DNA from: Syntrophobacteria bacterium
GTDB taxonomy: Bacteria; Desulfobacterota; Syntrophobacteria; BM002
DNA: 51,209 nt
Direction of reading: 5' to 3'
NCBI GenBank assembly: GCA_041560295.1
Contig: JBFFBS010000002.1
Coordinates: 1-51,209, forward strand
Both the position numbers and the translations under genes were made by a program. Positions 7,374-33,946 of the stretch are shown here, in pieces. How positions within the stretch are numbered: position 1 is the first letter of the stretch; every line of letters starts with the position of its first letter. Below the pieces are notes generated by a model. That model did not search any database. It was not told where the DNA came from and saw only the letters and a program-made list of their open reading frames with translations.

Positions 7374-7406
7374 ATTAGAGACGCGAAAGTAATGCCGCCT
7401 CGTCAC

Positions 7407-8484: not shown

Positions 8485-8823
8485 TTATAGAATTGTTACG
8501 GTTTCGAAAAACTGATCTCTCGCTTCAGGAATATCTGCCTCTGTGAAGCGAAAAGTGAAACTACCGATCTCAAAGGTATCCTCGTTGGATAGCACTATTT
8601 TGTTCACGCGCTTGCCCTTGAAGATAATTCCAGTGCTACTTCCCAGATCCTCTACCGTCCAGGCCCCTTCCTGGAAGGTAACCCTGGCGTGGTTCGGTGA
8701 TACAGTTTCGTCAGCAAGACAGATGGTATTCTCGGGATCGCTCCCAATGGTATCTTCGCCCAGCAGAGGATAGCCTGTGCTTGGGCCCGAACCCTGGGAT
8801 AAGAACAAAAATGCGTCTTTCAT
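8485..8823 (-). CDS. FHA domain protein
   Basis: IGSDPENTICLADETVSPNHARVTFQEGAWTVEDLGSSTGIIFKGKRV is a typical FHA core. Start placed at ATG 8823; this is uncertain. Confidence 0.75.
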   Translation of the reverse strand: MKDAFLFLSQGSGPSTGYPLLGEDTIGSDPENTICLADETVSPNHARVTFQEGAWTVEDLGSSTGIIFKGKRVNKIVLSNEDTFEIGSFTFRFTEADIPEARDQFFETVTIL

Positions 8824-9010
8824 GACTAGATTCCCGCTCTGATTATTCTTTTCTCGCCTCAAATTTGTAAGCAATAAAAGTGCCATTTTTATTAATTTGG
8901 CTTGACCATTCTATTTTTTTGCCTCTTGGTGCGAATTCGGCGCCTCAACTGAAACGGCAAACAAAAAGGCGACTGATACGGGGTATGCGGCCCCGCATCA
9001 ACCGCCAATA

Positions 9011-9108
9011 GAAATTCCAAATCACAATAACCAAAATTAAAAATTCAAAATCTGTTTGGGTCATTGAAAATGGGGACCCGCCCGCAGGGTGGGAGTCCGG
9101 AGGACCAA
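9011..9108 (+). repeat. Modular repeat block ending in twin-hairpin motif
   Basis: GAAATTCCAAATCAC..., then GGGGACCCGCCCGCAGGGTGGGAGTCCGGAGGACCAA. Confidence 0.9.
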
Positions 9109-9157
9109 TTTGTCATTTTGCGGTGTTTCTTTACTTCAGCAGACTTCCACGCTTATT

Positions 9158-9493: not shown

Positions 9494-9583
9494 CTCACCC
9501 TCCAATCGTCCAGTTGGTTAAGCCCCTCGACAACATCAGCCATGATACCATTGAGATAGATGGATTGCACAATATTGTAAGAG

Positions 9584-10520: not shown

Positions 10521-10529
10521 GCGCGGCCC

Positions 10530-11033
10530 TTATTTTGCCTGAGTGGCGATCTCTTTGAGTGGGACCTCTTTTGCCAAGGCGGTTAACTCATCTTCGTTCG
10601 CTATAGGTTCCCCTTCTATGACGACTAAGGTTTGCTTACCTAAAGAGATCATCAGGCCTCCGTTTCTATTCGCTTTGTTCAGTTGAAAAACAGCCTTATA
10701 TCCGGAGACGTTTATGGTCTTGATGATTTGATCCGGAGTTTCCATTTGCATTTGAGACATCGCTTGAAATGCCTGAGCCTGCGGGGCTATTACCCCGCTC
10801 ACAATCGTCAGGCTCGCTCTTTTATTGGTATTGTCGGTGTAGTTTTGTTGGAGAGATGACCAGGATTGGCCGCTCATTTCCATGTTGATACCGTCTGGGT
10901 CACCTGATTTAACCAAATTGCCCAAGGTTGCAGGGATCAAAGGTAACCAGCCTTTATAGTCGGTTGCATCGACCCGCACTGAGACTAATAACAAACAAAT
11001 AGCCATCAGGATAATTTTGTCTTTTGCTTTCAT
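10530..11033 (-). CDS. Exported hypothetical protein (167 aa)
   Basis: GGAGGTG SD. MKAKDKIILMAICLLLVSVRVDA is a signal peptide. Confidence 0.55.
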   Translation of the reverse strand: MKAKDKIILMAICLLLVSVRVDATDYKGWLPLIPATLGNLVKSGDPDGINMEMSGQSWSSLQQNYTDNTNKRASLTIVSGVIAPQAQAFQAMSQMQMETPDQIIKTINVSGYKAVFQLNKANRNGGLMISLGKQTLVVIEGEPIANEDELTALAKEVPLKEIATQAK

Positions 11034-11301
11034 TTCACACCTCCGACTTGACCAGTTCTCAGGCTAGCTCACGTGGTGTTTGGATATTGTTTTAATAGTC
11101 TGCTGGGTTTCTTTTATCTCTTGCCAGATTCGAAACCATCAAATGGAAATTCGCGGAACGATATCATGTCACCGGGGAAAGTCAATGGAAACCATGTTTA
11201 GGTGCAGGCAGGAAAGGGGTTTCGACCTTTACAGGATTCAAACGGAGACGTGCCCCTTTCATAATAGGTGAGGTGTAGTCAGGACCAAGAAGTTCATTAC
11301 A

Positions 11302-11742
11302 TCATATGGTAAGTTTCATTTCGTGCAGGTCATTATTAGAAGCTTGCGGGATTGTAGATACAGTCTTGAAACCGACTTTTTTATAAAATAATATCGCAGG
11401 CTTACATGCGTCTATAACAATTACATCTATCTCAGTAATTCTTTTATCCTTTAATATTTCCACCAATTTGTGAACGAGATTTGTGGCAATGCCTTTCCGT
11501 CTATGCTCTGGATGAACAGCAATTTTCAAAATAGTGGCCCTGACATTTCTATGACAGCAACCGGCGATTAGGTAGCCGCAGATCTCTTCCCCGTCAAAGA
11601 CAAGAAATATATCCTTTGAAATCTTTTCCAAGAAGTCGTAATCCCATGCAGTTGGAAATGAGAGCTCTTCGATCTCTATAACTTTGGCGAAATCTCCTTT
11701 TTTGGCTGTCCTGACAGTCATAGCTTGTCTTGTATTTCCCAT
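11302..11742 (-). CDS. GNAT family N-acetyltransferase (RimI-like)
   Basis: ILKIAVHPEHRRKGIATNLV is the acetyl-CoA binding motif (R/QxxGxG/A). Size and layout are typical of RimI-type GNATs. Confidence 0.75.
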   Translation of the reverse strand: MGNTRQAMTVRTAKKGDFAKVIEIEELSFPTAWDYDFLEKISKDIFLVFDGEEICGYLIAGCCHRNVRATILKIAVHPEHRRKGIATNLVHKLVEILKDKRITEIDVIVIDACKPAILFYKKVGFKTVSTIPQASNNDLHEMKLTI

Positions 11743-11766
11743 GCGGTGAGGTAGGTTGCGGGTATA

Positions 11767-12258
11767 TTATTCATCGCTGTCATCCAAGAATTTTCTTTTG
11801 ACGATTTCAAGTTCCTCAGGGGAAGTATTTTCATCCAGGTCCATGAGATCACCCTCCACTGACTGGACGAGCTTTTCCTCAAACATTTTTATCCAGAACA
11901 GAGCGCTTTCCCGGTTTGGCTCTCGCACGTGGATGCTGCTGGCCATATCCCTAGCCTCTGGAATCTCACCCGGGTCCTGGACGAAGACATCACCGCCAAA
12001 TATTTTCCTGAGGCATTGTATCATCTCCCGGCCTAACCCCCTGCGCTTCTCGCCGACGACTTCCAGATGAAAAAGGCTGATGTGCTTGAGCCCCTGCTCG
12101 TCCAGCCACACACTCAGCTCGCCCTTGTACTTACTGGGATTTTCAAAGTGGAGCACTTCCAGGGGGCCGTAACCCTTAAGGACGGTGAGGACTTCTTTAA
12201 TGCCCAGTTCTTTGTCTGCGCCTGTCCAGATAATGTCTTTCCAACATACCTCCGTCAT
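11767..12258 (-). CDS. Hypothetical protein (163 aa), possible degenerate GNAT-like motif
   Basis: AAGAGGAAAA SD. VVGEKRRGLGREMIQ resembles GNAT motif A. It lies 24 nt upstream of the GNAT gene. Confidence 0.45.
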   Translation of the reverse strand: MTEVCWKDIIWTGADKELGIKEVLTVLKGYGPLEVLHFENPSKYKGELSVWLDEQGLKHISLFHLEVVGEKRRGLGREMIQCLRKIFGGDVFVQDPGEIPEARDMASSIHVREPNRESALFWIKMFEEKLVQSVEGDLMDLDENTSPEELEIVKRKFLDDSDE

Positions 12259-12468
12259 AATCTGTTTTCCTCTTTCTCAAATAAATATATCTTTGAATTC
12301 TTACAACCTATTGAGATCATTTCTATTTTAATCAGCGAAAAGGCCAGGTTCATGATCTCGGATACTACATTGTGGCACTACCTGTCAAGCCGATATTTTA
12401 TTAATCTTGGAGAACCTGATCCGCAACGCTAGTTCAGAATTCAATGGTTTTGCCGATCTCAAAGACTA

Positions 12469-12650
12469 AGGTTTCAGGTTTCAGTGTTCAGGTTTCAGTT
12501 TTTTTGTTTTTCCTTCCTGACACCTGATCCGCCTCCGGCGGAACACCTGAAACCCTGAGATTTGTCCTTCGGACTCCCACCCTCCGGGCGGGGCCCCGGT
12601 TTGGTGCTTGGGATTTGATATTTTTCAATACTTCACCACTCCATTACTCC
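12469..12650 (+). repeat. Modular repeat block with long hairpin, inverted twin-hairpin motif and TTTGGTGCTTGG motif
   Basis: CAGGTTT/CAGTGTT units, a T-rich loop TTTTTTTGTTTTTCC, CTGACACCTG, CCGCC-TCC-GGCGG, an inverted GGGAGTCCGAAGGACAAA motif, then TTTGGTGCTTGGGATTTGATATTTTTCA and CACCACTCCATTACTCC. Confidence 0.9.
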
Positions 12651-12764
12651 AGCATACTTCCCTCTCATTTTTCATATCAGTTCGTACGCTGAGAGAAGTT
12701 TTGACTTTGACATATCAAGGCTGTAAAGTGAAGAGCCGTGACCATACAGTCTGAGGTAACAAAA

Positions 12765-13340
12765 GTGAATGCTAGAGAGACCCGGCCGGGACCAAGCCTA
12801 AAGCTGTCATTGACAATTCTCTTTGTGGTTATTGCCTCTGTGGTGGTGATCCTTCTCTTGCGGAATGGGCGAGACTCAACCATAACAACCACAAAACAGA
12901 TCCAAGTAGGGTTTCCAGCACCTAACTTTGCCTTCCCCGATCTCAATGGTCAGCAGATTAGTCTTTCTGACCACAGAGGCAAGGTGGTTCTTGTCAATAT
13001 CTGGGCCACCTGGTGTCCCCCGTGCCGGCAGGAAATGCCTTCCATGCAGAAACTGTATGAAAGATTCAGAGGTGAAAACTTCGAAATCCTCGCCGTAAGT
13101 ATTGACTCCACGGGGCCTGAAGCGGTGGCCCCTTTTATGCGAACAATGAATTTGACCTTCCCTGCCCTCCTGGATCCAAAAGGGGAAATCGGGCCTCTCT
13201 ACGGCTTAACCGGAGTTCCAGAAAGCATTATCATCGACAAAGAAGGGATTGTTGTTGAGAAAATCATTGGCCCAATAGACTGGGCCACTCCAAAAGTTTT
13301 CCAATTTTTCCAAGATCTCATTAACAAGCCAAAATCCTGA
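12765..13340 (+). CDS. TlpA/ResA-like thiol:disulfide oxidoreductase (thioredoxin fold, membrane anchored)
   Basis: WATWCPPCRQEMP active site. N-terminal TM LSLTILFVVIASVVVILLL. GTG 12765 has a GAGG SD 8 nt upstream; the ORF-track start at 12738 is also a GTG. Confidence 0.8.
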   Translation: MNARETRPGPSLKLSLTILFVVIASVVVILLLRNGRDSTITTTKQIQVGFPAPNFAFPDLNGQQISLSDHRGKVVLVNIWATWCPPCRQEMPSMQKLYERFRGENFEILAVSIDSTGPEAVAPFMRTMNLTFPALLDPKGEIGPLYGLTGVPESIIIDKEGIVVEKIIGPIDWATPKVFQFFQDLINKPKS

Positions 13341-13386
13341 CGTACAACCCCGTAGCGCCTTGCTTCATTATTATTGTTAAAATACC

Positions 13387-13764
13387 CTATTTTAAAGGAA
13401 ATGGCAGATCATCTAAGGAATAGTCAAGGCGAGTACGCCTCATGTCGATCTCGAGATGATTAATCATAACCTGCATCATTCCACGGCATACTTTCTTGTA
13501 GCTCAAACCGTCTCTATCCAGCTCTATTCCCTTCTCAGCCAGCAAGCGGTCGACGGCTCCAGTTGCCCGGCTGTAATTACAGATCGCTAGCTCCATGCGA
13601 CAGTCATGCTGTAGATGGGCCATGGCATCAACATGGTCAGCCAACCTTTCCTCATCTGTCCAACTTCTCTTTCCCAGAGCTCTATCCCTTTCATCTTCCT
13701 CCAATATTTTTGTGAGATAACTCCGCAGCAGTTCTTTGATCTGAGTGTCGGTCAGTTCTGCCAT
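13387..13764 (-). CDS. Hypothetical protein (125 aa)
   Basis: Clean ORF from ATG 13764. No domain recognised. Confidence 0.45.
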   Translation of the reverse strand: MAELTDTQIKELLRSYLTKILEEDERDRALGKRSWTDEERLADHVDAMAHLQHDCRMELAICNYSRATGAVDRLLAEKGIELDRDGLSYKKVCRGMMQVMINHLEIDMRRTRLDYSLDDLPFPLK

Positions 13765-13860
13765 GCCCTTGTCATTTCTACAACTGATTTGAAATCACAC
13801 AGTGTGACCAATTGATAGGAGGTGCTTATGAGTGACACCGGAAGGATATCATAATAATTG

Positions 13861-14172
13861 GTAAGTTAGTAAGCAGTAAGCAGTAAGCAGTAAGCAGTGA
13901 GCGGTAAGCGGTAAAAAAAGAATCCAGGAGTCAGGAGACAGGAGTTAGGAGTTAGAATTGAGGTTCCAGGTGTCAGGTTTCAGGTGTCAGTAGTAAAAGG
14001 TAAATTTTTATCTAGCATCGAGTATCCAGTATCCAGCATCGGGCTCTTAAATCCGCAATCCGAAATTCTGTCCTCCGCCCGCTGCTTTCTGCCCGCTGTC
14101 TTTTCCTATGCTCTATGCCCAGTGCTTTTTCGCTCTGCGCTCTGCGCTCTGCGTCAATCAATCCGCAATCTA
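13861..14172 (+). repeat. Composite repeat family A, copy 1
   Basis: GTAAGCA/GTGAGCG x7, A-run, AGAATCCAGGAGTCAGGAG..., TTGAGGTTCCAGGTGTCAGGTTTCAGGTGTCAGTAGTAAAAGGTAAATTTTTATCTAGCATCGAGTATCCAGTATCCAGCATCGGG, AATCCGC x2, GCTGCY, CTATGCY, GCTCTGC x3. Confidence 0.95.
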
Positions 14173-14343
14173 CAAATGGGAATCCTACCCTTCTCATAGA
14201 AAATGCTTCTGCCTTTGGTCAGTATTTGGTAAGATGATTTTACGAAAATGAACCCCTTGGATAGCCTGTACTCTCTCTAGAACAACGACACCAAAAGAAT
14301 CCACTGCTTCTTTAAAACAACGATTCCAAAAAGCCCGATTGAC

Positions 14344-14359
14344 TGGTACAGGACTAGCA
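14344..14359 (+). promoter_or_regulatory. Possible sigma54-type promoter upstream of cooS
   Basis: TGGTACAGGACTAGCA has GG and GC at the canonical -24/-12 spacing (consensus TGGCAC-N5-TTGCW), about 80 nt before the start. No enhancer-binding protein gene is nearby. Confidence 0.25.
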
Positions 14360-14440
14360 ATCAGCAGCGATGCTGCACAGTTTTGCATAGTATAAATCCA
14401 TAGCTTTGAATTCATCGTAACCTCACAAGGAGGAATGATT

Positions 14441-16354
14441 ATGGCGGGTGACAATGGCAACTCAAACAAGAGTACCGATCCGGCGGTCCAAGAGATGATC
14501 GCCAAGGCAGAGAGCTTGAATGTAGCTACTGTCTGGGATCGTTATGAGGCAATGCAGCCTCAATGCGGGTTCGGAGATACCGGCCTGTGCTGCCGGAACT
14601 GCCTGCAGGGCCCATGCCGCATTGATCCATTCGGTGAAGGCCCTGATAAAGCTATTTGCGGCGCCTCTGCGGATGTAATGGTAGCTAGAGGTCTGGATCG
14701 GGCAATTGCCGCAGGCACGGCAGCACATTCCGGCCACGCCAGGCACCTGGCCCACACACTGCTAAAAATGGCTGAGGGCAAAGCAAAGGATTATACCGTC
14801 AAGGACGGGGCCAAACTCAGGGCTGTGTCCACCAGGATGAACATCCCGGTTGAAGGCCGCTCTGATAATGAGATTGCTCTGGATCTTGCCAAGGCGGCCC
14901 TGGCGGATTTTGGTGAAAAAGACACCCCGGTTATGTGGGCGGCCACAGTGGTAACAAAAGACCGTGTCAAAGTGCTGACAGATCTGGGACTGGTGCCCAA
15001 GGGTATTGACTATGAAGTGTCGGAAATCATGCACCGCACAATTTATGGAGTAGATGCCGACGCTGTTAATCTGCTGCTGGCAGGTCTGCGCTGTGGTGTA
15101 GCGGATTTGGCCGGCTGCTATATGGGAACCGATTTAGCCGACATTCTTTTCGGCACCCCTACACCAGTGGTCACCGAGGCCAATCTGGGAACCCTAAAGG
15201 CTGATGCGGTTAATATCGCAGTTCACGGTCACAATCCAGTCCTGTCCGATTTAATGATAACGGTGGCAACTGATATGAAAGAAGCCGCTGTTGCAGCAGG
15301 TGCCTCGGGCATCAACATGGTGGGGATATGCTGCACCGGCAATGAGGTGATGATGCGCCACGGTATTCCGTCCTGTACCCACTCTGTTAGCCAGGAAATG
15401 GCTCTAATGACCGGAGCCCTCGATGCCATGGTGGTGGATTACCAGTGCATTATGCCAGCAGTTGTGAATGTAGCCGAGTGCATGGGAACCACAATTGTTA
15501 CCACCATGGATCTGTGCAAGATCACCGGTGCAACCCATGTGGAATTTTCGGAGGAGGCTGCTGCTGAAAAAGCAAAAGAAACGATCGATATCGCCATCCA
15601 AAACTTCAGCCGACGCAATAACAAACCCATAGATATTCCAGAGATAAGAACCCCGGTTGTCGCAGGGTTTTCCGTAGAAGCCATAGTTGCGGCACTGTCC
15701 AAAGTGGATGCTGAAGATCCTCTAAAGCCTGTTGTCGACAACATCAAGGCAGGCAACATCAGGGGGGTCTGTCTTTTTGCAGGTTGCAACAATGTCAAAG
15801 TGCCGCAAGATAAGAACTTCACCGTCATCGCCCGTAAGCTGCTCAAGGAGAATGTCCTTACCGTTGCTACCGGCTGCGGTGCCGGCGCCCTCATGCGCCA
15901 CGGATTTATGGATCCGGCCAATGTGGATGAGCTCTGTGGTGATGGCTTGAAGGCAGTGCTGACTGCCATCGGTGAAGCAAATGATTTGGGAGGGCCTCTG
16001 CCGCCTATATTGCACCTTGGCTCCTGCGTTGACAACTCGCGGGCAGTGGCCTTGGCAGTGGCAGTAGCCGATTATCTGGGGGTGGACACGGACAAGCTTC
16101 CGGTGGTGGCATCTGCGGCTGAGGCCGTATCCGAAAAAGCAGTCTCAATCGGAGCCTATGCAGTAGCTGCCGGTTTGCCAACGCACGTGGGCGTTATGCT
16201 TCCAGTGCTGGGGAGTCCTCTGGTGACCGAGATTCTGACGGACAAGGTAAAAGATCTGACCGGCGGCTATTTCATTGTGGATCTGGACCCGGAATCTGCA
16301 GCGGATCAACTTTTGAGCGCTATTGATGAGCGTCGGGCCGGCTTAGGGTTGTAA
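14441..16354 (+). CDS. cooS: Anaerobic carbon-monoxide dehydrogenase catalytic subunit
   Basis: N-terminal Cys cluster CGFGDTGLCCRNCLQGPCRI. HGHNP, CCTGNE, DYQC, TGCGAG and GSCVDN are C-cluster ligand contexts. AGGAGG lies 7 nt before ATG 14441. Confidence 0.92.
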   Translation: MAGDNGNSNKSTDPAVQEMIAKAESLNVATVWDRYEAMQPQCGFGDTGLCCRNCLQGPCRIDPFGEGPDKAICGASADVMVARGLDRAIAAGTAAHSGHARHLAHTLLKMAEGKAKDYTVKDGAKLRAVSTRMNIPVEGRSDNEIALDLAKAALADFGEKDTPVMWAATVVTKDRVKVLTDLGLVPKGIDYEVSEIMHRTIYGVDADAVNLLLAGLRCGVADLAGCYMGTDLADILFGTPTPVVTEANLGTLKADAVNIAVHGHNPVLSDLMITVATDMKEAAVAAGASGINMVGICCTGNEVMMRHGIPSCTHSVSQEMALMTGALDAMVVDYQCIMPAVVNVAECMGTTIVTTMDLCKITGATHVEFSEEAAAEKAKETIDIAIQNFSRRNNKPIDIPEIRTPVVAGFSVEAIVAALSKVDAEDPLKPVVDNIKAGNIRGVCLFAGCNNVKVPQDKNFTVIARKLLKENVLTVATGCGAGALMRHGFMDPANVDELCGDGLKAVLTAIGEANDLGGPLPPILHLGSCVDNSRAVALAVAVADYLGVDTDKLPVVASAAEAVSEKAVSIGAYAVAAGLPTHVGVMLPVLGSPLVTEILTDKVKDLTGGYFIVDLDPESAADQLLSAIDERRAGLGL

Positions 16355-16380
16355 CAGATCGCCAGAGAGACTGTCAACGG

Positions 16381-16412
16381 AGTCTTTTGCCTAAACGAAA
16401 AGACTTTCTTTA
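16381..16412 (+). other. Intercistronic hairpin between cooS and cooF
   Basis: AGTCTTTT-N9-AAAAGACT followed by TTCTTT. Possible partial terminator or mRNA-processing site. Confidence 0.35.
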
Positions 16413-16433
16413 GATAGAGAAAAGGAGATGGTC

Positions 16434-16940
16434 ATGGCTCAGCCAAAGGAAATATTTGTTAGGCTGGATCGATGTTTGGGATGTCACAGCTGCGAACTGG
16501 CCTGCGCGGTGGAGCACTCTCAAAGCAAATCACTATATAGTGCCATTTCAGAAAAGCCTACCCCCCAAAGCCGTGTATACGTGGAATGGGTAGCTCCCGA
16601 CAATCGGCTGCCGGTATTGTGCCGTCATTGCGAAGACGCCCCCTGTATGCATGCCTGTATCTGCGGTGCCATCAGCCGCACCGAAGAGGGGGTGGTTTTG
16701 ACGAACACAAATAAGTGCATCGGCTGCTGGACCTGTGTCATGGTGTGTCCCTATGGTGTTATCGGACGCCATCTGGAGGAGCATAAAGCCTATCGCTGTG
16801 ATCGCTGTCCGGACCTGGAAATGCCTGCCTGTGTCAGCTCTTGTCCCACCAAGGCGCTGGTCTACCGGACCGTGGATGATTTTTCGAAAGACGTTCGCAA
16901 GGTCGCATCCAGGGAAATGTTGTCCGGAGAGGGGGGATAA
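16434..16940 (+). CDS. cooF: CooF-type 4Fe-4S iron-sulfur protein
   Basis: CLGCHSCELAC, CRHCEDAPC, CIGCWTCVMVCP and CDRCP...CVSSCP ferredoxin motifs. GGAG lies 6 nt before ATG 16434 (alternative start 16428). Confidence 0.85.
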   Translation: MAQPKEIFVRLDRCLGCHSCELACAVEHSQSKSLYSAISEKPTPQSRVYVEWVAPDNRLPVLCRHCEDAPCMHACICGAISRTEEGVVLTNTNKCIGCWTCVMVCPYGVIGRHLEEHKAYRCDRCPDLEMPACVSSCPTKALVYRTVDDFSKDVRKVASREMLSGEGG

Positions 16941-18946: not shown

Positions 18947-19150
18947 AACCGTTGAAGTCGTTCATTAGTTGATTGGAGAATTAGAAAATTAGTTAAAACC
19001 GCAGGATCGCGGCTGACCTTCGACAGGCTCAGGTCTGGGAAAGCCGCTCCCACAGTAGAATCTTTGTCTTCTGTTTTTTAAATCCGCAATCCGCAATCCG
19101 AAACCGGGAACCCGCCCGCAGGGTGGGAGTCCGCAGGACAATTCCGCAAT
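18947..19150 (+). repeat. Modular repeat block containing ~100-bp family D copy 1 and twin-hairpin motif
   Basis: GAAGTCGTT units; GATCGCGGCTGACCTTCGACAGGCTCAGGTCTGGGAAAGCCGCTCCCACAGTAGAATCTTTGTCTTCTGTTTTTTAAATCCGCAATCCGCAATCCGAAA (19004-19103); GGGAACCCGCCCGCAGGGTGGGAGTCCGCAGGACAA. Confidence 0.95.
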
Positions 19151-19153
19151 CTC

Positions 19154-20950: not shown

Positions 20951-21400
20951 GGTCCTCCGGTTCTAGAACGGGCGGCTCGAGCTTGCACCGGCGCCCGGTG
21001 TCGTCTCCCGGTAGCTCGGGTAAAAGGGAATTGGATCTGTTATTCAAGCGGCCCCATTGAAGCTCCCTGCCCCGCTTTAGCGGAACTAAAGCGGGACAGT
21101 CCGCCTGCGGCGGATTCGAAATGTAAGGAAGTGATTCCATCTTATTGTAGTTCGCTCGCTAACCCCGTCCGCCTCAGGCGGACTACGGGGAATGCGTTCG
21201 CCCTGTTGAATTTCCCGAAGGGAACCCTATTCAACGGGGCGAGCAGTAGCATTTTCAGCCACAGAATTTTCCACCCAGTGGATCGACCGGACTCGATTCC
21301 AGGGGCGAGTTGTTCATGTATCCCAATCGGGCGAGGAAGTCAATCCGGGTAACACCGGGAGTGTTCTCTTTATTCAAAATTGAAAACGTGGTCATCAGGG
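20951..21400 (-). other. Highly structured 450-nt region upstream of lepA (leader or unassigned ncRNA)
   Basis: No credible ORF. It is a chain of perfect hairpins, for example CGCCCTGTTGAAT..TTCCC-GAAG-GGGAA..ATTCAACGGGGCG, CCCCGTCCGCC-TCAG-GCGGAC-ACGGGG, CCCGCTTTAGC-GGAA-CTAAAGCGGG and CACCGG-CGC-CCGGTG. Confidence 0.35.
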
Positions 21401-21402
21401 CC

Positions 21403-21560
21403 AGATCAGGTCGCATAGGGCATAGCGCCTAACGCCTAGCGAAAAAAAAGAGTGAACGGTAAATGGTAAAGGGTGAACAGTCGCGGAGCTAGGGCATGAT
21501 CGGCTTACCGTTCACCGTTTGCTGTTTACCTCACGCTTTGCATCTGCGCTTAGCGCTTTG
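21403..21560 (+). repeat. ~160-bp repeat family C, copy 1 (left flank of the ExeA-like/vWA-FHA pair)
   Basis: CAGATCAGGTCGCATAGGGCATAGCGCCTAACGCCTAGCGAAAAAAAAGAGTGAACGGTAAATGGTAAAGGGTGAACAGTCGCGGAGCTAGGGCATGATCGGCTTACCGTTCACCGTTTGCTGTTTACCTCACGCTTTGC... More than 90% identical by eye to 25009-25170. Confidence 0.95.
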
Positions 21561-21941: not shown

Positions 21942-23531
21942 ATGTATCTTTCGCATTACAATTTGAGAGTAAAGCCCTTTCAGCTTTCTCCAGACCCCAA
22001 GTTTCTCTGGCTAGGCGAGCAGTATAAGGAGGCCCTTGCTGCTTTAGAATATGGAATACGTAGTACCAAGGGACTCATCCTGCTCACCGGTGATGTCGGC
22101 ACCGGCAAGACCACACTGGTAAATGCCACAATAAACCGGTGGAACCTCGACAGCGTTATCGCCTCCGTTTCTGATCCTCAAATGGAAATAATGGATTTCT
22201 ACAATTTTCTTGCTCACTCATTTAGGATGGAGAGGAGGTTCGAAAGTAAAGGTGATTTTTTAGTAAAGTTCAGCCACTTGGTATTCAAGATATATAAACA
22301 AGATAAAAGGTTATTGCTGATAATTGATGAAGCACAGAGATTAAATCATGAACTGCTTGAGGAAATACGTCATTTATCAAATATAGAAACACAAGACACC
22401 AAGCTTCTGACAATTATTTTAGCAGGACAAAACGAATTAAACTCCATCTTGAGACAGGATATCAATCGGGCTGTGCGGCAAAGGATCTCCCTCAATTATT
22501 ATCTCAAACCTTTGAGTAAAAACGACACCAGGGAATATATCAGACACCGTCTCAACATTGCCGGCACAGAGAAGAAGATCTTCAAAGCAGACACCCTGCC
22601 TGCAGTTATGTCTTTTTCGAAAGGCTACCCACGTCTGATAAATAGCATATGCGATCAGGCGCTGTTGACGGGCTATGTTAGAGGTGTGAAGCAAATCGAT
22701 GCGAAGATTATAAGAGAGTGCGCAGAAGAGCTCCGTTTGCCAACTGAAGAGGTACAGGAACCTTCGAAAATATCAAAATGGGTGGCAAAGACAGGAACCA
22801 ATAACATTGCCGTAACGAGACGGGGCATCATGAGAAGCTTTGCCTATGTTGTTTCGTCTGTGCTGCTATTTCTACTCTTCGGATATTTTTTTTACTCGGG
22901 AGGCCACATTAGGATTCTCAATAAATGGTCAGAGACAAGGTCAGACCCACCCATGGTGGAGGTCGGAAAAAGCAAGAATATCCAGGTTCAGGGTGCGGAA
23001 AAACCTGCCGACCCTGAGATCTATGAGGCCAAGCTCAGGGACAGTCCAATAGAGCAAGGGGGAAAAAGAGAATCTGCTTCGGGATATGTAAGACAACCAA
23101 TTGCAACGGCCGACAATGTCATTGCCGGTTCGAGCCGAGATGGCAGTCGACCAACACCTGTGGTCGAATCCAGGCGGTTTTCATTCCTACAAAATCGTAA
23201 ACTGGTCATATATTTTGGCTTTAACTCAAATCAGCTTTCGCATGCTGCCCTAAAAAACCTGGAGCAGCTTGCTGTAGCTCTGATTCAGAGACCTGAGATC
23301 AGAATAATAATCAAAGGTTTCACTGATCAGTACGGGATATACAGTTACAACAAGATGCTCTCCGAATCCCGGGCAAATGTGGTCAAAGGTTATCTCATCG
23401 GCAAGAGCATTGAACCCTCGAGAATTAAGACACTCGGGATAGGTCCGGCCGAGTCAAGCGGGGCGAATAAGGCGGCAAGATTGGCTCGTCGGGTTGAAAT
23501 TGAATTGGATACCACTACTCAGGAGAGGTGA
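21942..23531 (+). CDS. ExeA/GspA-like AAA+ ATPase with TM segment and C-terminal OmpA-like peptidoglycan-binding domain
   Basis: N-terminus YNLRVKPFQLSPDPKFLW...LTGDVGTGKTTL (Walker A), LLIIDEAQ (Walker B). TM FAYVVSSVLLFLLFGYFFY. C-terminus FGFNSNQL...GFTDQYG...SESRANVVKGYL...RRVEIEL. Confidence 0.8.
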   Translation: MYLSHYNLRVKPFQLSPDPKFLWLGEQYKEALAALEYGIRSTKGLILLTGDVGTGKTTLVNATINRWNLDSVIASVSDPQMEIMDFYNFLAHSFRMERRFESKGDFLVKFSHLVFKIYKQDKRLLLIIDEAQRLNHELLEEIRHLSNIETQDTKLLTIILAGQNELNSILRQDINRAVRQRISLNYYLKPLSKNDTREYIRHRLNIAGTEKKIFKADTLPAVMSFSKGYPRLINSICDQALLTGYVRGVKQIDAKIIRECAEELRLPTEEVQEPSKISKWVAKTGTNNIAVTRRGIMRSFAYVVSSVLLFLLFGYFFYSGGHIRILNKWSETRSDPPMVEVGKSKNIQVQGAEKPADPEIYEAKLRDSPIEQGGKRESASGYVRQPIATADNVIAGSSRDGSRPTPVVESRRFSFLQNRKLVIYFGFNSNQLSHAALKNLEQLAVALIQRPEIRIIIKGFTDQYGIYSYNKMLSESRANVVKGYLIGKSIEPSRIKTLGIGPAESSGANKAARLARRVEIELDTTTQER

Positions 23532-23597
23532 TTCGAACTTCCTGGTGCTCCTACAACCAGAAATCTCAGGTGCATGAACAGAGATAGGTGGTGACAA

Positions 23598-24974
23598 ATG
23601 AAAGAGACCAAGATCAAAAAAACAATTCTAGGTATGGTGATTACAGCTTTTATTCTGAGCTTGAGTTTGGGCGGCTTTAGAGTGACTGTGGTTTGCGCTA
23701 GCACGACGAGCACAGTTAGCAGTCCCACAGGAGAAGTACCCCAGGTGGAGTTGAAGCAAGCGCAACTAGACATTGTTTTTGTCCTCGACAACTCGGGGAG
23801 CATGCGAAACAACGACCCCAATTTCATTACCAAAGAGGTTGTAACCAATTTTTTAAGTGGGCTCGGTGAAAAATCACACCTGGGCATGGTCATTTTTGAT
23901 GAAACTGCAAAGCTCGTCGTACCGCTTACATCAATAGATGATGCTGAGGTGCGGGCCCGGTTTCTCGAGAGCCTAAATGTGATTAATTTCAAAGGCAAGT
24001 TTACCAACAGCCCCGCCGGAATCGAAAGAGCAATTTATGAACTCAAAACCAAAGGCCGACAACATACAGAAAAAATAATAATTTTTCTGACCGACGGCAT
24101 TGTGGATACAGGAAACAAGAGCCAGGATCTGGAAAAGGAAAATTGGCTGAAGGAGGATCTCACCCGGGAGAGCAAAAACGCGGGTATTCGTATTTTTGGT
24201 ATCGCCTTTACTGACGATGCCGATTTCCGCCTGATCCAAACACTGGCGGTCAGGACGGATGGTGAGTATTTCAGGGTATTCGAGGTAGCTGACCTTCAAG
24301 AGGTCTTTGCTAAGATCAAGCGAATTATCGCCGAACCACCCACCCAAGAAACAATTGTGTCCACCGCGGAAACGAATAGTCCAGCACCCATAGAAAGGCA
24401 GGAGGTATCGGTAAAACAGCGCCAGGTAGTACCCGAGGTGGCCAAAAAGCAAAAGAGTTCGCTTGTGGTGGTCCTCTCTGGAGCCATAGTTTTGTTGGCA
24501 TTAATCGTACTGATGCAGGTGGTGAGAAAAAGAAAGACCCAGGTCGCACAGCCTGCCATGGAGCAGAGGGCGGGTGGCAGAATTCTGCCTGCGAAACCTC
24601 GTCTGCCTCAAGCGGTCTTGATTGACGTCGGACAGGCTATTTCAACTGAATCCTTAACGTTGCCTTTAAACAAAGATACCCTGAGAATTGGCCGTGATGT
24701 TGGAAACGACATCGTGATCTCCAGGAAGACCATATCCAGCTTTCATGCAACAATTGCATACAAAGATGGTTATTTCTATATAGAAGATCTGAGGAGTACT
24801 AACGGCACACGCTTAAACGATGACAAGCTCAGGCATAATGAACCTGTGAGGCTGAAGAGCGGAGACAAGATCGATTTTTCCATCCATGAATTCAGATTCC
24901 TCATTCCCGATCAGACACCCCTTGGTGAAACAGTAACCGTGTCAGAAATGTCGAAGTTGCAAGCGCAGAAGTAG
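23598..24974 (+). CDS. Membrane protein with periplasmic vWA domain and cytoplasmic FHA domain
   Basis: Signal/TM ILGMVITAFILSLSLGG. vWA MIDAS DIVFVLDNSGSM and FLTDG. TM SLVVVLSGAIVLLALIVLMQVV. FHA LRIGRDVGNDIVISRKTISSFHATIAYKDGYFYIEDLRSTNGTRLN. GGTGGTG SD. Confidence 0.8.
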   Translation: MKETKIKKTILGMVITAFILSLSLGGFRVTVVCASTTSTVSSPTGEVPQVELKQAQLDIVFVLDNSGSMRNNDPNFITKEVVTNFLSGLGEKSHLGMVIFDETAKLVVPLTSIDDAEVRARFLESLNVINFKGKFTNSPAGIERAIYELKTKGRQHTEKIIIFLTDGIVDTGNKSQDLEKENWLKEDLTRESKNAGIRIFGIAFTDDADFRLIQTLAVRTDGEYFRVFEVADLQEVFAKIKRIIAEPPTQETIVSTAETNSPAPIERQEVSVKQRQVVPEVAKKQKSSLVVVLSGAIVLLALIVLMQVVRKRKTQVAQPAMEQRAGGRILPAKPRLPQAVLIDVGQAISTESLTLPLNKDTLRIGRDVGNDIVISRKTISSFHATIAYKDGYFYIEDLRSTNGTRLNDDKLRHNEPVRLKSGDKIDFSIHEFRFLIPDQTPLGETVTVSEMSKLQAQK

Positions 24975-25008
24975 CTTTGTTCAACATCGAAAGCCTGGTC
25001 CTTGGAGT

Positions 25009-25170
25009 CAGATCAGATCGCATAGGGCATAGCGCCTAGCGCCTAGCGAAAAAAAAGAGTGAACGGTAAATGGTAAAGGGTGAGCAGTCGCGGAGCCAGG
25101 GCATGATCGGCTTACCGTTCACCGTTTACTGTTTACCTCACGCTTTGCGCTCTGCGCTTGGCGCTTTGCG
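25009..25170 (+). repeat. ~160-bp repeat family C, copy 2 (right flank of the ExeA-like/vWA-FHA pair)
   Basis: Same sequence and orientation as 21403-21560. It starts 35 nt after the stop at 24974. Confidence 0.95.
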
Positions 25171-25369
25171 TCGAGGGGCAGTTCAAAGGCGGGTCCTTTG
25201 GGTCTGGATTCTTCACTATAAAAAACCCCCACTAGCTAGGGCCAATAGCAAATGGGGGTTAGAGTTCAAAGTAGGTATCAGACAAGGAGGTTGTCTGCCT
25301 TCAATTTCTTGAATTATCCTACTTGCCTAATAGATAATCACGCGACTGCCCATGTCAAGAGGATAAAGA

Positions 25370-25541
25370 AAAGAATTCAGTAGTAAGTAGTTAGGAGAAA
25401 GCGGTGAGCAGTAAACCGTTGAAGTCGTGTTTTGCAGGTTATAGGTCATGGGTTATAGGTCATAGGTTATCACCCATTACCCATCACCAATAACCTAAGT
25501 ATCCTTTCTCGTTTTTCCCGCCTTTCTCGCCTTTCTCGCCA
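25370..25541 (+). repeat. Modular repeat block containing palindrome family B copy 1
   Basis: AAAGAATTCAGTAGTAAGTAG, GTGAGCAGTAAAC, GAAGTCGTG, then CAGGTTATAGGTCATGGGTTATAGGTCATAGGTTATCACCCATTACCCATCACCAATAACCTAAG (25436-25500), then CCTTTCTCG x3. Confidence 0.95.
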
Positions 25542-25543
25542 GC

Positions 25544-25951
25544 TCAATTCGTTTCATTCTCATCTATGATCAACGTCTGCAAACTCTTCAACTTCCACTG
25601 GTCTATCTCCACCTTACCCCCTTGCAGGTGTTGGAGGACTTCTTTGGCTATAATCTGCCTGTCTTTACTAGCAATAGCCAGAAATCGAACACCCATGCCG
25701 CGAGGCGAAATCTTGTCATCAGGCCCATAGATGTTGGAGAAGACAACTTCCGCCCTGGCTTCAATGAGCCAGTCCGAATCTGGGACGTCAATAGTCATAT
25801 CGAAGACTTCGTTGAGTCGAAGTGGATTTCCACATCTAATGTACGCTCCACTCGGGCTCACATTTAAGGTTACTCCATCTCTGGAGCTGTCATCCGTGCT
25901 GATAAAAACAGGCCATTTAACGTTAGCTCTGGCGAAATGGCGATCGTCCAT
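25544..25951 (-). CDS. PilZ domain protein
   Basis: RHFAR (RxxxR) and NVSPSG (D/NxSxxG) motifs. GGAGG SD before ATG 25951. Confidence 0.7.
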   Translation of the reverse strand: MDDRHFARANVKWPVFISTDDSSRDGVTLNVSPSGAYIRCGNPLRLNEVFDMTIDVPDSDWLIEARAEVVFSNIYGPDDKISPRGMGVRFLAIASKDRQIIAKEVLQHLQGGKVEIDQWKLKSLQTLIIDENETN

Positions 25952-26139: not shown

Positions 26140-26390
26140 GCATAGGGCATGGGGCATGGAGCACAGGGTAAAACCAAAAATAAAAGAATTCAGGAGTCAG
26201 GAGACAGGAGTCAGTAGTTAAGGTTCAGGGTACAAGGTTCACGGTTCAGGATGCCTTCCTCTATGCTCTATGCTTTTTTCGCAACGGACCACGGACAACT
26301 GACAAAAAGCCTTCCGTTTTTCCCTGAGCCTTGCGCCTTGTGCCTTGCGCCTCTTCTCAATCCGCAATCCGCAATCTGAAATCGTCAATC
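26140..26390 (+). repeat. Modular repeat block
   Basis: Inverted GCATAGGGCATGGGGCATGGAGCA arm, AAAGAATTCAGGAGTCAGGAGACAGGAGTCAGTAG, GGTTCAG/GGTACAA units, CTCTATGCTCTATGC, CAACGGACCACGGACAACTGACA, GCGCCTT/GTGCCTT x4, AATCCGC x3. Confidence 0.95.
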
Positions 26391-26443
26391 AAAAGTGTTA
26401 CCTGAAATGTTCTTAAGTAGAGGATAAGATACGGGGGGCGAGT

Positions 26444-28325: not shown

Positions 28326-28433
28326 AATCAAATCGTGAATGCTAAGCAGTAAGCGGTAAGCAGTAAGCGGTAAATCGTTATCGAGAAATGAATATCTCAA
28401 ATTCCTAAATTCCTCAATCTCTAAATTCCTAAA
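28326..28433 (+). repeat. Modular repeat block (family J with 31784-31900)
   Basis: AATCAAATCG, GTAAGCA/GTAAGCG x4, GGTAAATCGTTATCGAGAAATGAATATCTCAAATTCC, CCTAAATT/CCTCAATC units. Confidence 0.9.
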
Positions 28434-28452: not shown

Positions 28453-28890
28453 TCATTTTTCTTCTTGATACAAGGGAAGTATTGGAGTGCCGTCTGACTT
28501 GGATTTTGAAACACTTCCATCCAAAGCCCCTCCGGATTCTATTGATAGGGTCCCGTATGAAACGTCACCGATAACTTTTCCTTTACTGAAAACGGTTAAC
28601 TTGCCGTTGCAGATCATTTCACCTTCAAAGCGTCCAGCCACACTCACGTTTTCGGCTTCAACTTTTGCCTCAAGATTGCCGTCCTGTAGAATCTCCAAAG
28701 AGCTACACTTTATATTCCCTGTCACAGAACCGTCTACAATGAGAGTGCCTGCTGTTTCAATCTGTCCCTCGAGTTTACTACCGGCAGAGATGATAGTTGT
28801 TTCTACAGTCTTCAGTGGGTTTTTGAAGAGTCTCACCTTTGCTGGCTCAGTGTCTTTTTTGCTTGCGTCTTGTTTGTTTTTCTGCCACAT
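28453..28890 (-). CDS. Bactofilin family cytoskeletal protein
   Basis: Beta-helical repeat pattern GSKLEGQIETAGTLIVDGSVTGNIKCSSLEILQDGNLEAKVEAENVSVAGRFEGEMICNGKLTVFSKGKVIGDVSYGTLSIESGGALDG. ATG 28890 with a GAGGG SD. Confidence 0.8.
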   Translation of the reverse strand: MWQKNKQDASKKDTEPAKVRLFKNPLKTVETTIISAGSKLEGQIETAGTLIVDGSVTGNIKCSSLEILQDGNLEAKVEAENVSVAGRFEGEMICNGKLTVFSKGKVIGDVSYGTLSIESGGALDGSVSKSKSDGTPILPLYQEEK

Positions 28891-29149
28891 GGTTTGTCCC
28901 TCTTTGTTTGAGAAGCGTTTCTCATTTTGGCCAAATTTAGTTTGCAAGGGTCATGCCTGAATACCTGCTTCGGGAGTTGAGCAGCATAGAGGGAGAAAGT
29001 GGAAAGCAAAATAGCCCTGTCTAGAGCGCGACTAGTTCCATACATAGACAATTGAGATCGGACTATCAACACTGTTCTGATAATTTAAGATTTCGAGCAA
29101 TAGATGCACAAATCCATACATCAGCATGCGGACGCCGCTGTGATTCATA

Positions 29150-30757: not shown

Positions 30758-30837
30758 TTTGGCCTCTTAGCAAATGAGAAGAAAATGTCCAACGCTGTCA
30801 AATGAAATCATAATGAAAGAAGCATGCCACTTTTGAG

Positions 30838-31040
30838 TAACGGTAAGCAGTAAGCGGCAAAAAAAGAATCCAGGAGTCAGGAGCCAGAATTGAGGTTTCA
30901 GGTGTCAGGTTTCAGGTGTCAGTAGTAAAAGGTAAATATTTATCGAGCATCGAGTATCCAGTATCCAGCATCAAGTTTTTAAATCCGCAATCCGAAATTC
31001 GCAATTCGAAATTATTTCCCTATGCTCCATGCTCTATGCT
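30838..31040 (+). repeat. Composite repeat family A, copy 2
   Basis: Same order as 13861-14172, with whole-unit differences (two fewer CAGGAG units, extra AATTCGC units). ORF 30916..31326 starts inside it (MSVVKGKYLSSIEYPVSSI...). Confidence 0.95.
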
Positions 31041-33437: not shown

Positions 33438-33776
33438 TTAGGTGGTGGCTTTTAGGAAGTCGGTTATGGTCTCTTCCTCTACCGCCATGATAGAAGCTTG
33501 TGAATTTTGACTTGTACCAATATTGACAACATCGCCATGTTTAAGTTTGGCACAAATTACTTGCATGCCATTCAATGCTGTGCCTTGCTTGCTACCTTCG
33601 TCGCCAACGAACAACTCGTCTCCCCAGCGTGCAATGCGAGCATGCCTGCGTGAAACGTGTGGATCATCAACCATAATATGATTCTCGGCACTGCGACCGA
33701 TAAATCGAACATCTCCATTCCGGAGGGTGTATTCCCTAATGGTGAAGCTTTTGAATCTCAATTCAAGCTTGAACAT
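33438..33776 (-). CDS. FHA domain protein
   Basis: RFIGRSAENHIMVDDPHVSRRHARIARWGDELFVGDEGSKQGTALNG. ATG 33776 with a GGAGGA SD; the ORF-track start at 33803 is a GTG. Confidence 0.75.
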   Translation of the reverse strand: MFKLELRFKSFTIREYTLRNGDVRFIGRSAENHIMVDDPHVSRRHARIARWGDELFVGDEGSKQGTALNGMQVICAKLKHGDVVNIGTSQNSQASIMAVEEETITDFLKATT

Positions 33777-33946
33777 GCCTTTCCTCCATTCGTTTAACGA
33801 CACCGATGTTCAAACATTTGCAACTCTCATGCCCGGTTGCTTAACCAGGTGGGCCGCATGGAGGGAAAAGGAGCTGGATTTTGAGTTACCAGCAGCATAT
33901 AACAACCATGCTCCCCGCTGATTTAGCGATGTAAATCCGATGCCAA

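Follow-up and report, generated by a model that had tools for sequence, protein, structure and literature searches.

A GspA-like ATPase gene beside a vWA-FHA membrane protein gene in Syntrophobacteria: a possible phospho-controlled module of the cell envelope

What would a bacterium do with an ATPase that is probably fixed to the cell wall when the gene beside it encodes a membrane protein that could bind a ligand outside the cytoplasm and read phosphothreonine (pThr) within it? This question is raised by two neighboring genes in 51,209 nucleotides (nt) of DNA from a Syntrophobacteria bacterium, an uncultured sediment organism of sulfate-reducer type (contig JBFFBS010000002.1 of assembly GCA_041560295.1; this whole stretch is called the window below). 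Gene 1 (21942..23531, 529 amino acids [aa]) encodes a GspA/ExeA-like AAA+ ATPase with a transmembrane (TM) helix and an OmpA-like domain. Gene 2 (23598..24974, 458 aa) encodes a protein with a signal peptide, a von Willebrand factor A (vWA) domain predicted to be periplasmic, a TM helix, and a forkhead-associated (FHA) domain predicted to be cytoplasmic. A spacer of 66 nt (23532..23597) separates them, and the genes with all of their domains lie on the plus strand. An earlier note on this DNA had placed both open reading frames (ORFs) at these positions and lengths, and our coordinates match. To our knowledge, GspA-type ATPases are the only proteins that directly couple cytoplasmic ATP hydrolysis to a peptidoglycan-binding domain; we know of them only as helpers of type II secretins, acting by a mechanism that is unclear. 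Our reading, to which we give roughly even odds, is that the pair is a two-protein module built on the plan of GspA and its partner GspB, which reaches from the inner membrane to the cell wall, stands outside any secretion-system locus, and works as a phospho-controlled complex.

Domains and predicted topology of the two proteins

The N-terminal part of gene 1 is that of a GspA-family ATPase. In Pfam, the protein matches AAA_22 at residues 40 to 170 (E = 4.9e-23) as well as AAA_16 and related families; AAA_3, the MoxR family, was not matched. The best-scoring curated family for residues 1 to 265 is TIGR03015 of NCBIfam (XrtA/PEP-CTERM-associated GspA/MshM-like ATPase), over the entire model of which they align with a score of 254.3 bits, below the cutoff of 324.5. 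More than 3500 homologues share the gene 1 architecture, under the JGI family name "general secretion pathway protein A." The predicted cytoplasmic AAA+ domain covers residues ~20 to 265 (21999..22736; AlphaFold2 [AF2] predicted local distance difference test score [pLDDT] of 70 to 89), and its best fold matches in Foldseek are TnsC, Orc/Cdc6, and MuB, which belong to the AAA+ clade containing AAA_22. No GspA ATPase structure was among the matches of two PDB searches with gene 1. For conservation we aligned 38 gene 1 and 34 gene 2 relatives, down to about 41 to 43% identity. Walker A residues G50 and G53-T-G-K56-T57 and Walker B residues D129-E130 are invariant in this alignment, and with a mean column identity of ~50% among relatives as distant as 41% identity, both genes are well conserved and not diversifying.

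Gene 1 has a single TM helix by hydropathy, at residues 295 to 317 (22824..22892; Kyte-Doolittle peak of 2.0; AF2 helix at 294 to 318), preceded by the basic stretch TRRGIMR. A low-complexity linker that would lie in the periplasm follows (residues ~321 to 413, 22902..23180; pLDDT of <50); its length and sequence are poorly conserved, and it is gapped in the alignment. The OmpA-like domain at residues ~414 to 525 (23181..23516) is supported by its AF2 fold, by Pfam OmpA (PF00691, residues 424 to 505, E = 5.7e-14), and by PDB sequence matches to P6, Pal, YiaD, and the C-terminal domain of OmpA. Residues D462 (in GFTD) and R477 (in LSxxRAxxV) are invariant in all 38 sequences; we take them, from what is known of OmpA-like domains, to be the pair that contacts the diaminopimelate of peptidoglycan. 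Judged by these residues, the domain is probably a noncovalent peptidoglycan anchor.

Gene 2 is equally clear in profile searches, with Pfam VWA at residues 58 to 237 (E = 6.4e-19) and FHA at residues 363 to 427 (E = 4.9e-20). It also matches Yop-YscD_cpl; apart from families of the VWA and FHA types, the only Pfam match was to DUF3948, below threshold. We counted 1175 homologues, which carry generic database names such as "FHA domain-containing protein" and, in JGI, "Mg-chelatase subunit ChlD." The N terminus consists of a basic n-region (MKETKIKK), a hydrophobic core, and then VCA|S, where cleavage may occur; the signal peptide or anchor covers residues ~9 to 35 (23622..23702; hydropathy segment 9 to 27), and a hydrophobic N terminus is kept throughout the family. 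In the vWA domain (residues ~55 to 248, 23760..24341; AF2 pLDDT of 71 to 91), the metal ion-dependent adhesion site (MIDAS) is complete, consisting of D64-x-S66-x-S68, T136, and D166. Residues D64, S66, S68, T165, and D166 are invariant, and position 136 is Thr or Ser across the family. The top Foldseek matches of this domain are the anthrax toxin receptor CMG2 (TM-score of ~0.84), TEM8, integrin-type vWA domains, and BatB.

The second hydrophobic segment of gene 2, at about residues 288 to 310 (24459..24527), has a Kyte-Doolittle peak of 2.96 and an AF2 helix at 287 to 313, and it is directly followed by RKRK. The linkers on its two sides (residues 250 to 288 and 311 to 334) are disordered, with a pLDDT of <50 in AF2. 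The FHA domain beyond it (residues ~335 to 438, 24600..24911) is recognized by Pfam and forms a confident FHA sandwich in AF2. The TM-plus-FHA region aligns to mycobacterial FhaB/FipA Rv0019c in NCBIfam, and the fold matches are the FHA domains of EmbR, OdhI, and GarA, with root mean square deviations of 1.1 to 2.2. The pThr-binding residues G365-R366, S380-x-x-H383, and N402 are invariant in 34 sequences. By residues and fold, the domain is predicted to be a canonical pThr reader.

The C-terminal tail of gene 2 carries the motif P441-L-G443-E444-T445 (24918..24932), identified by alignment, in a stretch that is disordered from residue 440 to 458 (pLDDT of <50). P441, G443, E444, and T445 are invariant. 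The motif PxG[ED]T follows every FHA domain of the Desulfobacterota family members, standing after each of the two domains in double-FHA proteins; it is present in 48 of 86 members of the gene 2 family, every one of them from Desulfobacterota, and is missing from all gammaproteobacterial members. In GarA and OdhI, the protein's own phosphorylated tail binds its own FHA domain. By analogy, T445 is a candidate phospho-acceptor or self-ligand of the FHA domain.

Taken together, these features make it likely that the ATPase and FHA domains are cytoplasmic and the OmpA-like and vWA domains periplasmic. The earlier note had made the same four domain calls (AAA_22/ExeA, OmpA, VWA, and FHA) and proposed this topology. 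Profile searches agree on all four calls, with matches far stronger than chance would give; hydropathy, which gives one TM helix in gene 1 and a signal-like segment plus one TM helix in gene 2, agrees with the topology, as do the AF2 layouts. The motifs quoted there (YNLRVKPFQLSPDPKFLW, GDVGTGKT, LLIIDEAQ, FGFNS, GFTDQYG, RRVEIEL, and DNSGSM) are all found in the translations.

Conservation of the pair, its transcription, and its neighbors

To follow the pair across genomes, we scanned GTDB species representatives with a pattern derived from the gene 2 alignment, which yielded 79 loci from Desulfobacterota and Gammaproteobacteria metagenome bins. Neighborhood statistics were based on our own ORF calling and BLAST clustering, and part of the neighbors were checked against Pfam. 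A gene 1 homologue was adjacent to the gene 2 relative in 26 of 86 loci, comprising 21 of the 79 species-representative loci, the window, and four further loci chosen by protein identity. In the other 60, no gene 1 homologue was found in the surrounding sequence examined, a few of these stretches being too short to tell. Three arrangements were seen. In the tandem arrangement, gene 2 is 67 to 100% identical to that of the window, and the genes are separated by 66 nt or overlap by 4 nt (ATGA). In the divergent arrangement, gene 2 is 41 to 53% identical to the window's. In the third (locus L089, from a lineage sister to the tandem clade), the genes are also divergent, and a short extra AAA_22 gene lies between them.

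Across loci, the pairwise identities of gene 1 and of gene 2 are correlated (r = 0.92 overall and 0.93 within the divergent clade). That adjacency was kept through an inversion and wide divergence argues for a functional link, and the co-conservation on which the earlier note's proposal turned is borne out by the 21 of 79 species-representative loci, the three arrangements, and the correlated divergence. A neighbor-joining tree built from gene 1 proteins resolves both the tandem and the divergent clade as monophyletic groups, which meet unpaired lineages at one central node. A single origin of the pairing is unsupported, since the rooting of this tree is ambiguous.

The spacer of the window contains the Shine-Dalgarno-like sequence AGGTGGTGA, 5 nt 5' of the gene 2 ATG. 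No terminator-like hairpin was found in the spacer by a terminator scan; the promoter and terminator scan gave counts not above those of shuffled sequence, and we used it solely for this statement. Contigs assembled from four RNA runs of sediment or seawater cover both genes at low depth, and contig X26 spans 23475-23700, that is, the gene 1 stop, the spacer, and the start of gene 2. These data are assembler contigs and show presence and one junction-spanning contig, nothing quantitative. X26 supports cotranscription weakly, because its run is only tentatively labeled as RNA. The sequence recurs almost unchanged in numerous metagenomes of marine, estuarine, and sediment origin. Its nearest relatives with a name are bins of Syntrophobacteria and Syntrophobacterales, and every carrier of the pair that we found is uncultured.

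The neighbors of the pair differ between its clades. At 9 to 10 loci of the divergent clade, a block composed of a Hanks kinase (~910 aa), a PatA_N/DUF4388 protein (~553 aa), and a second Hanks kinase (~425 aa) lies directly beside the pair, and both kinases have a multi-TM N terminus. The outer flanks of this five-gene block (kinases, PatA_N, and pair) differ among at least three groups of loci; therefore, the block is conserved as such and not through general synteny. The pThr link of the pair gains support from this kinase block in a sister clade. In the window, a Pfam scan of 42 ORFs, namely, the pair and 40 of the remaining ORFs that are 110 aa or longer (one of 81 aa also being included), gave no Pkinase, PP2C, or secretin match, as the earlier note had said of secretin, kinase, and phosphatase genes; exosortase and exopolysaccharide (EPS) genes were likewise absent from the scanned ORFs. 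PP2C was also missing from the Pfam annotations of the annotated paired loci L003 to L006 and L089. No secretin, pilin, type II secretion system (T2SS), type IV pilus, exosortase, or polysaccharide-export gene was recognized within 10 kb of any paired locus, and no MoxR gene formed a recurrent neighbor cluster there. The pair is thus not routinely embedded in a known T2SS, type IV pilus, or EPS locus, a placement that would have made it an accessory of a described machine.

Relatives without the pairing show what else surrounds these two families. Desulfobacterales gene 2 relatives of 580 to 600 aa have two FHA domains and no gene 1; they directly follow genes for a bactofilin and a Peptidase_M99 (Csd4-like) protein, downstream of tol-pal and ruvABC. 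In loci L001, L022, and L027, the bactofilin gene lies at about 9500-9870; Csd4-like proteins are cell-shape carboxypeptidases. These neighbors hint that the vWA-FHA family is tied to cell-wall or cell-shape functions. The gammaproteobacterial relatives (L059 to L085, 550 to 790 aa) have neither an ATPase partner nor PxGET and face a divergently encoded protein of ~290 aa with a C-terminal FHA domain; L069 holds this two-gene unit twice, 8 kb apart (1281-3023 and 9746-11461).

Gene 1 relatives outside the pairing have other neighbors again. In L086 and L088, a conserved two-TM protein of ~180 aa is encoded immediately upstream. The neighbors in L090 are two unannotated proteins and a lytic transglycosylase, and the same bin has a paired copy (L004). 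The unpaired homologue in L087 adjoins two MshE-type T2SSE ATPases and lies near an exosortase/PEP-CTERM locus; along 10001-16752 of that locus, the AAA_22-OmpA gene is followed by the two ATPases, which have GAF and cNMP-binding domains. In L089, the AAA_22-OmpA gene, the extra short AAA_22 gene, and the divergent vWA-FHA gene occupy 2993-7602. The L087 and L089 units are found at the same chromosomal position of Desulfobacterota genomes, beside ispF, cysS, uvrB, and uvrC, and comparison of the two suggests that the partners of the AAA_22-OmpA ATPase were swapped in place. The picture that results is of gene 1 as a family of wall-anchored ATPase modules with exchangeable membrane partners. 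GspA also works with a variable bitopic partner encoded next door, GspB, whose length and domains vary between lineages (PMC9239104).

Closer to the pair, two stand-alone FHA proteins noticed earlier in the window are real by profile search. One (8485..8886, minus strand, 133 aa, E = 4.2e-16) is 13 kb upstream of the pair, and the other (33438..33803, minus strand, 121 aa, E = 1.5e-16) is 8.5 kb downstream. In the tandem clade, a gene related to cyclic di-GMP (c-di-GMP) lies convergently just downstream of the pair; it encodes a PilZ protein in the window and L009 and a GGDEF or PAS-GGDEF protein in L005, L010, and L016. The window's copy (25544..25951, minus strand, 135 aa, Pfam PilZ, E = 1.4e-11) makes a c-di-GMP link possible. 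Whether it belongs to the module is uncertain, given how many genes of this kind these bacteria have. A second single-domain PilZ protein is encoded at 2353-2787 (plus strand), and PilZ or GGDEF genes also occur near the unpaired gene 1 homologues L086 and L091.

Known systems and competing explanations

Several described systems share parts of this pair. In the GspA/ExeA-GspB/ExeB pair of the T2SS of Aeromonas and Vibrio, GspA joins a cytoplasmic AAA+ domain of the same family through one TM helix to a module that binds peptidoglycan in the periplasm (PMC9239104), and a bitopic membrane partner is encoded next to the ATPase. However, gene 1 has OmpA-like PF00691 in place of PG_binding_1 (PF01471) and no cysteine-peptidase-like region; the two peptidoglycan-binding domains are not homologous, and their function is probably equivalent. 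Gene 2 differs from GspB in its predicted orientation, which is opposite (N terminus out, C terminus in), and in having vWA and FHA domains instead of an HR domain, and neither secretin nor T2SS genes were seen near the pair in the 51-kb window or within 10 kb at the paired loci. Because gene 1 shares the family and topology of GspA and departs from it in the type of peptidoglycan-binding domain, the GspB partner, and the secretin association, we call it GspA-like and not GspA. TIGR03015 and MshM of MSHA pili align over the whole model to residues 1 to 265, and the homologue in L087 has an exosortase context; in contrast, the score of 254 falls short of 324.5, the family consists of soluble proteins of ~270 aa without a TM or OmpA extension, and the window has no exosortase or EPS genes. 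That exosortase/EPS context was seen only for the unpaired L087.

The domains of gene 2 also have precedents. In operons of vWA, Ser/Thr kinase, FHA, and PP2C genes (Deinococcus DRA0331-0334 and Sulfolobus ArnA-ArnB), vWA and FHA proteins and Hanks kinases occur together (10.64898/2026.01.23.701218; PMC6509490). Around the pair, such kinases adjoin in the divergent clade and are absent from the window and the tandem clade. Gene 2 instead fuses vWA and FHA, its constant partner is an AAA+/OmpA protein, and no PP2C was seen in annotated loci. Since its vWA and FHA domains would be on opposite sides of the membrane, they could not bind each other as ArnA and ArnB do; the domains of the Deinococcus, Sulfolobus, and MoxR-vWA systems are cytoplasmic, and the ATPase of the conflict systems is MoxR. 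The bitopic FHA scaffolds YscD/PrgH/MxiG, GltG, and FhaB/FipA Rv0019c similarly have a cytoplasmic FHA domain, a single TM helix, and a periplasmic part. Their differences from gene 2 are that the FHA domain of YscD and GltG is N-terminal, whereas in gene 2 it is C-terminal behind a signal peptide and a vWA domain, and that gene 2 keeps all canonical pThr-binding residues in loci with no type III secretion system (T3SS) or Glt genes. BatA/BatB with MoxR, and MoxR-vWA-iSTAND, resemble the pair in having a membrane-anchored vWA protein beside a P-loop NTPase (BatB being among the fold matches), and in iSTAND systems OmpA can occur after TM segments (PMC7159879). Here, however, there is no MoxR and no effector domain, the NTPase is of the GspA type with active motifs, and OmpA is on the ATPase. 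Finally, the integrin I-domain and CMG2/TEM8 receptors have an extracytoplasmic MIDAS vWA domain, a single TM helix, and a cytoplasmic tail by which phosphorylation-dependent signals are read. Structurally, the gene 2 vWA domain is closest to CMG2/TEM8 and integrin alpha I-domains, at ~20 to 24% identity; in this prokaryotic context the likeness is an analogy of layout only and does not imply common descent of the architecture.

In the open-access literature, we found no description of an AAA_22-OmpA protein, of a vWA-TM-FHA protein, or of their pair. The earlier note had said that the pair could not be equated with a described system. This holds for the pair itself; its plan, however, follows the GspA/GspB pattern, and within the phylum, paralogues of the ATPase are paired with other membrane partners. 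What was already known is the domain set and arrangement of gene 2, in more than 1000 database sequences under generic names, and neighborhoods of vWA, FHA, and kinase genes. What is new, though not categorically so, is a GspA-like ATPase with a vWA-FHA partner, which combines envelope modules of the GspA/GspB type with FHA/Hanks-kinase signaling.

How might such a module work? Gene 1 and gene 2 would form an inner-membrane complex tied to peptidoglycan by the OmpA-like domain of gene 1 on its flexible linker of ~90 residues. Gene 2 would be a type I membrane protein that holds the MIDAS vWA domain in the periplasm and the FHA domain in the cytoplasm. Membrane Hanks-type kinases, whose genes adjoin the pair in the sister clade and in this genome presumably lie elsewhere, would phosphorylate a threonine, for which the best candidates may be T445 in the PxGET tail of gene 2 or a site on the kinases. 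Binding of the FHA domain to pThr could then decide whether gene 2 oligomerizes or engages the ATPase, and on this would depend what the metal site of the periplasmic vWA domain retains, at a spot fixed to the wall by gene 1. The role would likely be to position or assemble a structure of the cell envelope rather than to regulate transcription. In this scheme, we infer the physical interaction, the phospho-site, the vWA ligand, the direction of control, and the biological role.

A number of observations weigh against this scheme. The gene 1 neighbor is absent at 60 of 86 gene 2 loci, including the double-FHA and gammaproteobacterial forms; since most gene 2 relatives do without it, gene 2 is able to work without gene 1. 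Correlated divergence is expected of any two vertically inherited neighboring genes. Charges are only weakly biased around the TM helix of gene 2, and the main ground for the topology is therefore the conserved signal segment at the N terminus. The surroundings of the pair in the window contain no kinase or PP2C gene, and the tandem clade is generally without them as well. The contig that crosses the junction comes from the run with the tentative RNA label. We found no Thr or Ser that is conserved in gene 1 of the paired clades but not of the unpaired ones, the only paired-clade-specific positions being P17, Y87, D105, V108, L160, and L166. A phospho-acceptor on gene 1 was rejected on this ground, and gene 1 is not an obvious FHA target.

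The main alternatives differ in what the pair serves and in which direction it acts. It is unlikely, in our estimate, that the two proteins are genuine assembly factors of the GspA/GspB type, serving a secretin machine with genes elsewhere in the genome (a T2SS, a type IV or MSHA-like pilus, or exosortase/EPS export); in that case, gene 1 would open or organize peptidoglycan while gene 2 replaced GspB as the outer-membrane adaptor and its FHA domain docked a cytoplasmic platform as in YscD/MxiG or GltG. The full-length alignment of the gene 1 N terminus with TIGR03015 and its JGI name agree with such a role, as do the MshE-type T2SSE ATPases and nearby exosortase/PEP-CTERM locus of the unpaired L087, whose uvrBC/cysS/ispF position is taken in L089 by the vWA-FHA gene. 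Bitopic FHA scaffolds, moreover, serve the T3SS and the Myxococcus Glt machine, and gene 2 matches Yop-YscD_cpl. Yet the TIGR03015 score is under the cutoff, gene 2 lacks a GspB/HR domain, and its recurrent partners are kinases and c-di-GMP genes and not machine parts; within 10 kb, in the window and in the paired loci examined, there is no secretin, pilin, GspC-M, exosortase, or polysaccharide-export gene. An envelope sensor working from outside in, as the earlier note had envisaged beside an anchoring role, seems improbable to us. In it, a ligand of the vWA domain would alter the FHA state so that a phosphoprotein was released or captured, and the ATPase would reset or amplify the response. 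The predicted topology, with a ligand-binding domain outside and a reader inside, would suit a sensor, and so would the two stand-alone FHA proteins of the window, the kinases of the sister clade, and the PilZ/GGDEF genes of the tandem clade. However, neither protein has a cytoplasmic output domain, the FHA domain reads phosphorylation and makes no signal, and a single TM helix between disordered linkers transmits conformation poorly unless there is oligomerization. Outside-in signaling is no better supported than inside-out control or scaffolding. We favor inside-out control or a phospho-gated scaffold because the cytoplasmic side has a reader and an ATPase and no output domain, because disordered linkers lie on both sides of the gene 2 TM helix, and because the kinases have membrane domains of their own.

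The combination of NTPase, vWA, FHA, and Ser/Thr kinase recurs in conflict systems (PMC7159879; PMC13622651), and a phage-defense system akin to the MoxR-vWA ternary or iSTAND systems, possibly mobile, could be imagined here. The neighboring kinases match the PD-T4-6 and mad6 kinase models of PADLOC, a 195-nt direct repeat brackets the pair, and an AbiE toxin-antitoxin pair lies nearby in L005. We hold this to be highly improbable. Against PADLOC-DB v2, gene 2 had no match and gene 1 had weak generic ones only (TnsC, 3.9e-07; MotB part of ZorB, 5.8e-06), neither protein had a specific match, and what the kinases match is the Hanks fold in general. MoxR (AAA_3) is lacking, as are effector domains of the nuclease, protease, or TIR kind, the proteins are conserved and not diversifying, and the flanking repeat is made of the heptamer arrays of most intergenic regions. 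Identity with an iSTAND/MoxR-vWA ternary system was rejected, since besides the lack of MoxR the NTPase motifs are intact and not inactive as in iSTAND, and OmpA is on the wrong component. It is scarcely credible that the topology prediction is wrong and that vWA and AAA+ domains share one compartment as a chaperone-like pair (MoxR-vWA, ChlI-ChlD, or RavA-ViaA). AAA+ ATPases are very often encoded beside vWA proteins, and JGI calls gene 2 a Mg-chelatase subunit ChlD; against this, the signal-like N terminus is kept family-wide, a strongly hydrophobic TM helix separates vWA from FHA, gene 1 is of the AAA_22/GspA and not the MoxR/ChlI kind, and an FHA domain in the periplasm would have no phospho-ligand.

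A bolder version of the phospho-controlled, wall-anchored module, which we regard as doubtful, is that the pair and the kinases make up a self-contained, integrin-like inside-out envelope receptor, in which pThr read by the FHA domain and the ATPase would together switch the MIDAS between binding and release with no secretion or pilus machine. If true, diderm bacteria would have a means, so far undescribed, of governing periplasmic or outer-membrane attachment from within the cell. Beyond that, these data describe a large Desulfobacterota branch of the GspA family with an OmpA-like anchor, interchangeable membrane partners, and no adjacent secretion system, and a partnership that in at least 21 species-level genomes joins the ATPase to a protein with a periplasmic MIDAS and a cytoplasmic pThr reader. 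If the two proteins act together, they would offer a tractable diderm case in which control by Ser/Thr phosphorylation crosses the inner membrane and reaches the wall, and they would widen what GspA-like ATPases are for. The host organisms abound in marine and estuarine sediments, where these genes are also transcribed.

Flanking genes and repeats of the window

The remaining genes around the pair are variable housekeeping genes: lepA, phospholipase A1, and bactofilin genes, among others, in the window and Lon, HrpA, glycogen phosphorylase, MMPL, and ilvD genes elsewhere. The bactofilin gene (28453-28947, minus strand) is 3.5 kb downstream of the pair and is also found in L009. Two further genes of the window are unrelated to the pair and may be components of conflict systems, namely, one for a DUF2779/Cas4-like nuclease-domain protein (45653-47131, minus strand) and one for an ARPP-1 protein (ARG and rhodanese-phosphatase-superfamily-associated; 48306-49298, minus strand).

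The direct repeat of ~195 nt (families D1 and D3) has an upstream copy at 21368..21560 and a downstream copy at 24975..25168, which begins at the first base past the gene 2 stop. The copies are 91 to 94% identical, have a spacing of 3607 to 3608, and bracket the pair together with its leader. The repeat holds a 16-nt inverted repeat, is built of heptamer-periodic units, and is present in two copies only in the window and in none of the related loci examined. Because it is absent from relatives and made of heptamer arrays that are common throughout the window, we did not take it as evidence of a cassette, and the idea of the pair as a mobile cassette was rejected. A regulatory RNA in the ORF-free leader of ~1 kb 5' of gene 1 was likewise dropped, since Rfam at the gathering threshold gave zero matches in the whole window, this leader included.

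Most intergenic regions of the window are filled by tandem arrays with a 7-nt period, in which at least 20 repeat families recur. Their units include GGTAAGC/AGTAAGC, CAGGAGT, AATCCGC, CCCACAT, CTATGCT, and GGTTATA, and in style they are like the STRR repeats of cyanobacteria, which are heptameric too. Examples lie at 1946-2260, 6588-6693, 13854-14118, 25362-25540, 26175-26407, 28327-28412, 30831-31024, 38073-38260, 42338-42532, and 47206-47287. Two stretches, 21000-21307 and 25004-25311, have no Rfam match and stand out in all four RNA runs, with contig depths of 30 to 370 compared with 2 to 9 over neighboring genes (10- to 100-fold); this could be due to abundant small transcripts or to multicopy repeats that recruit contigs of other loci or organisms. 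GC-rich palindromes resembling REP elements (e.g., GGGAACCCGCCCGCAGGGTGGGAGTCCG) recur 3' of genes, at 3814-3865, 9067-9118, and 19101-19152, and also at 21098-21184.

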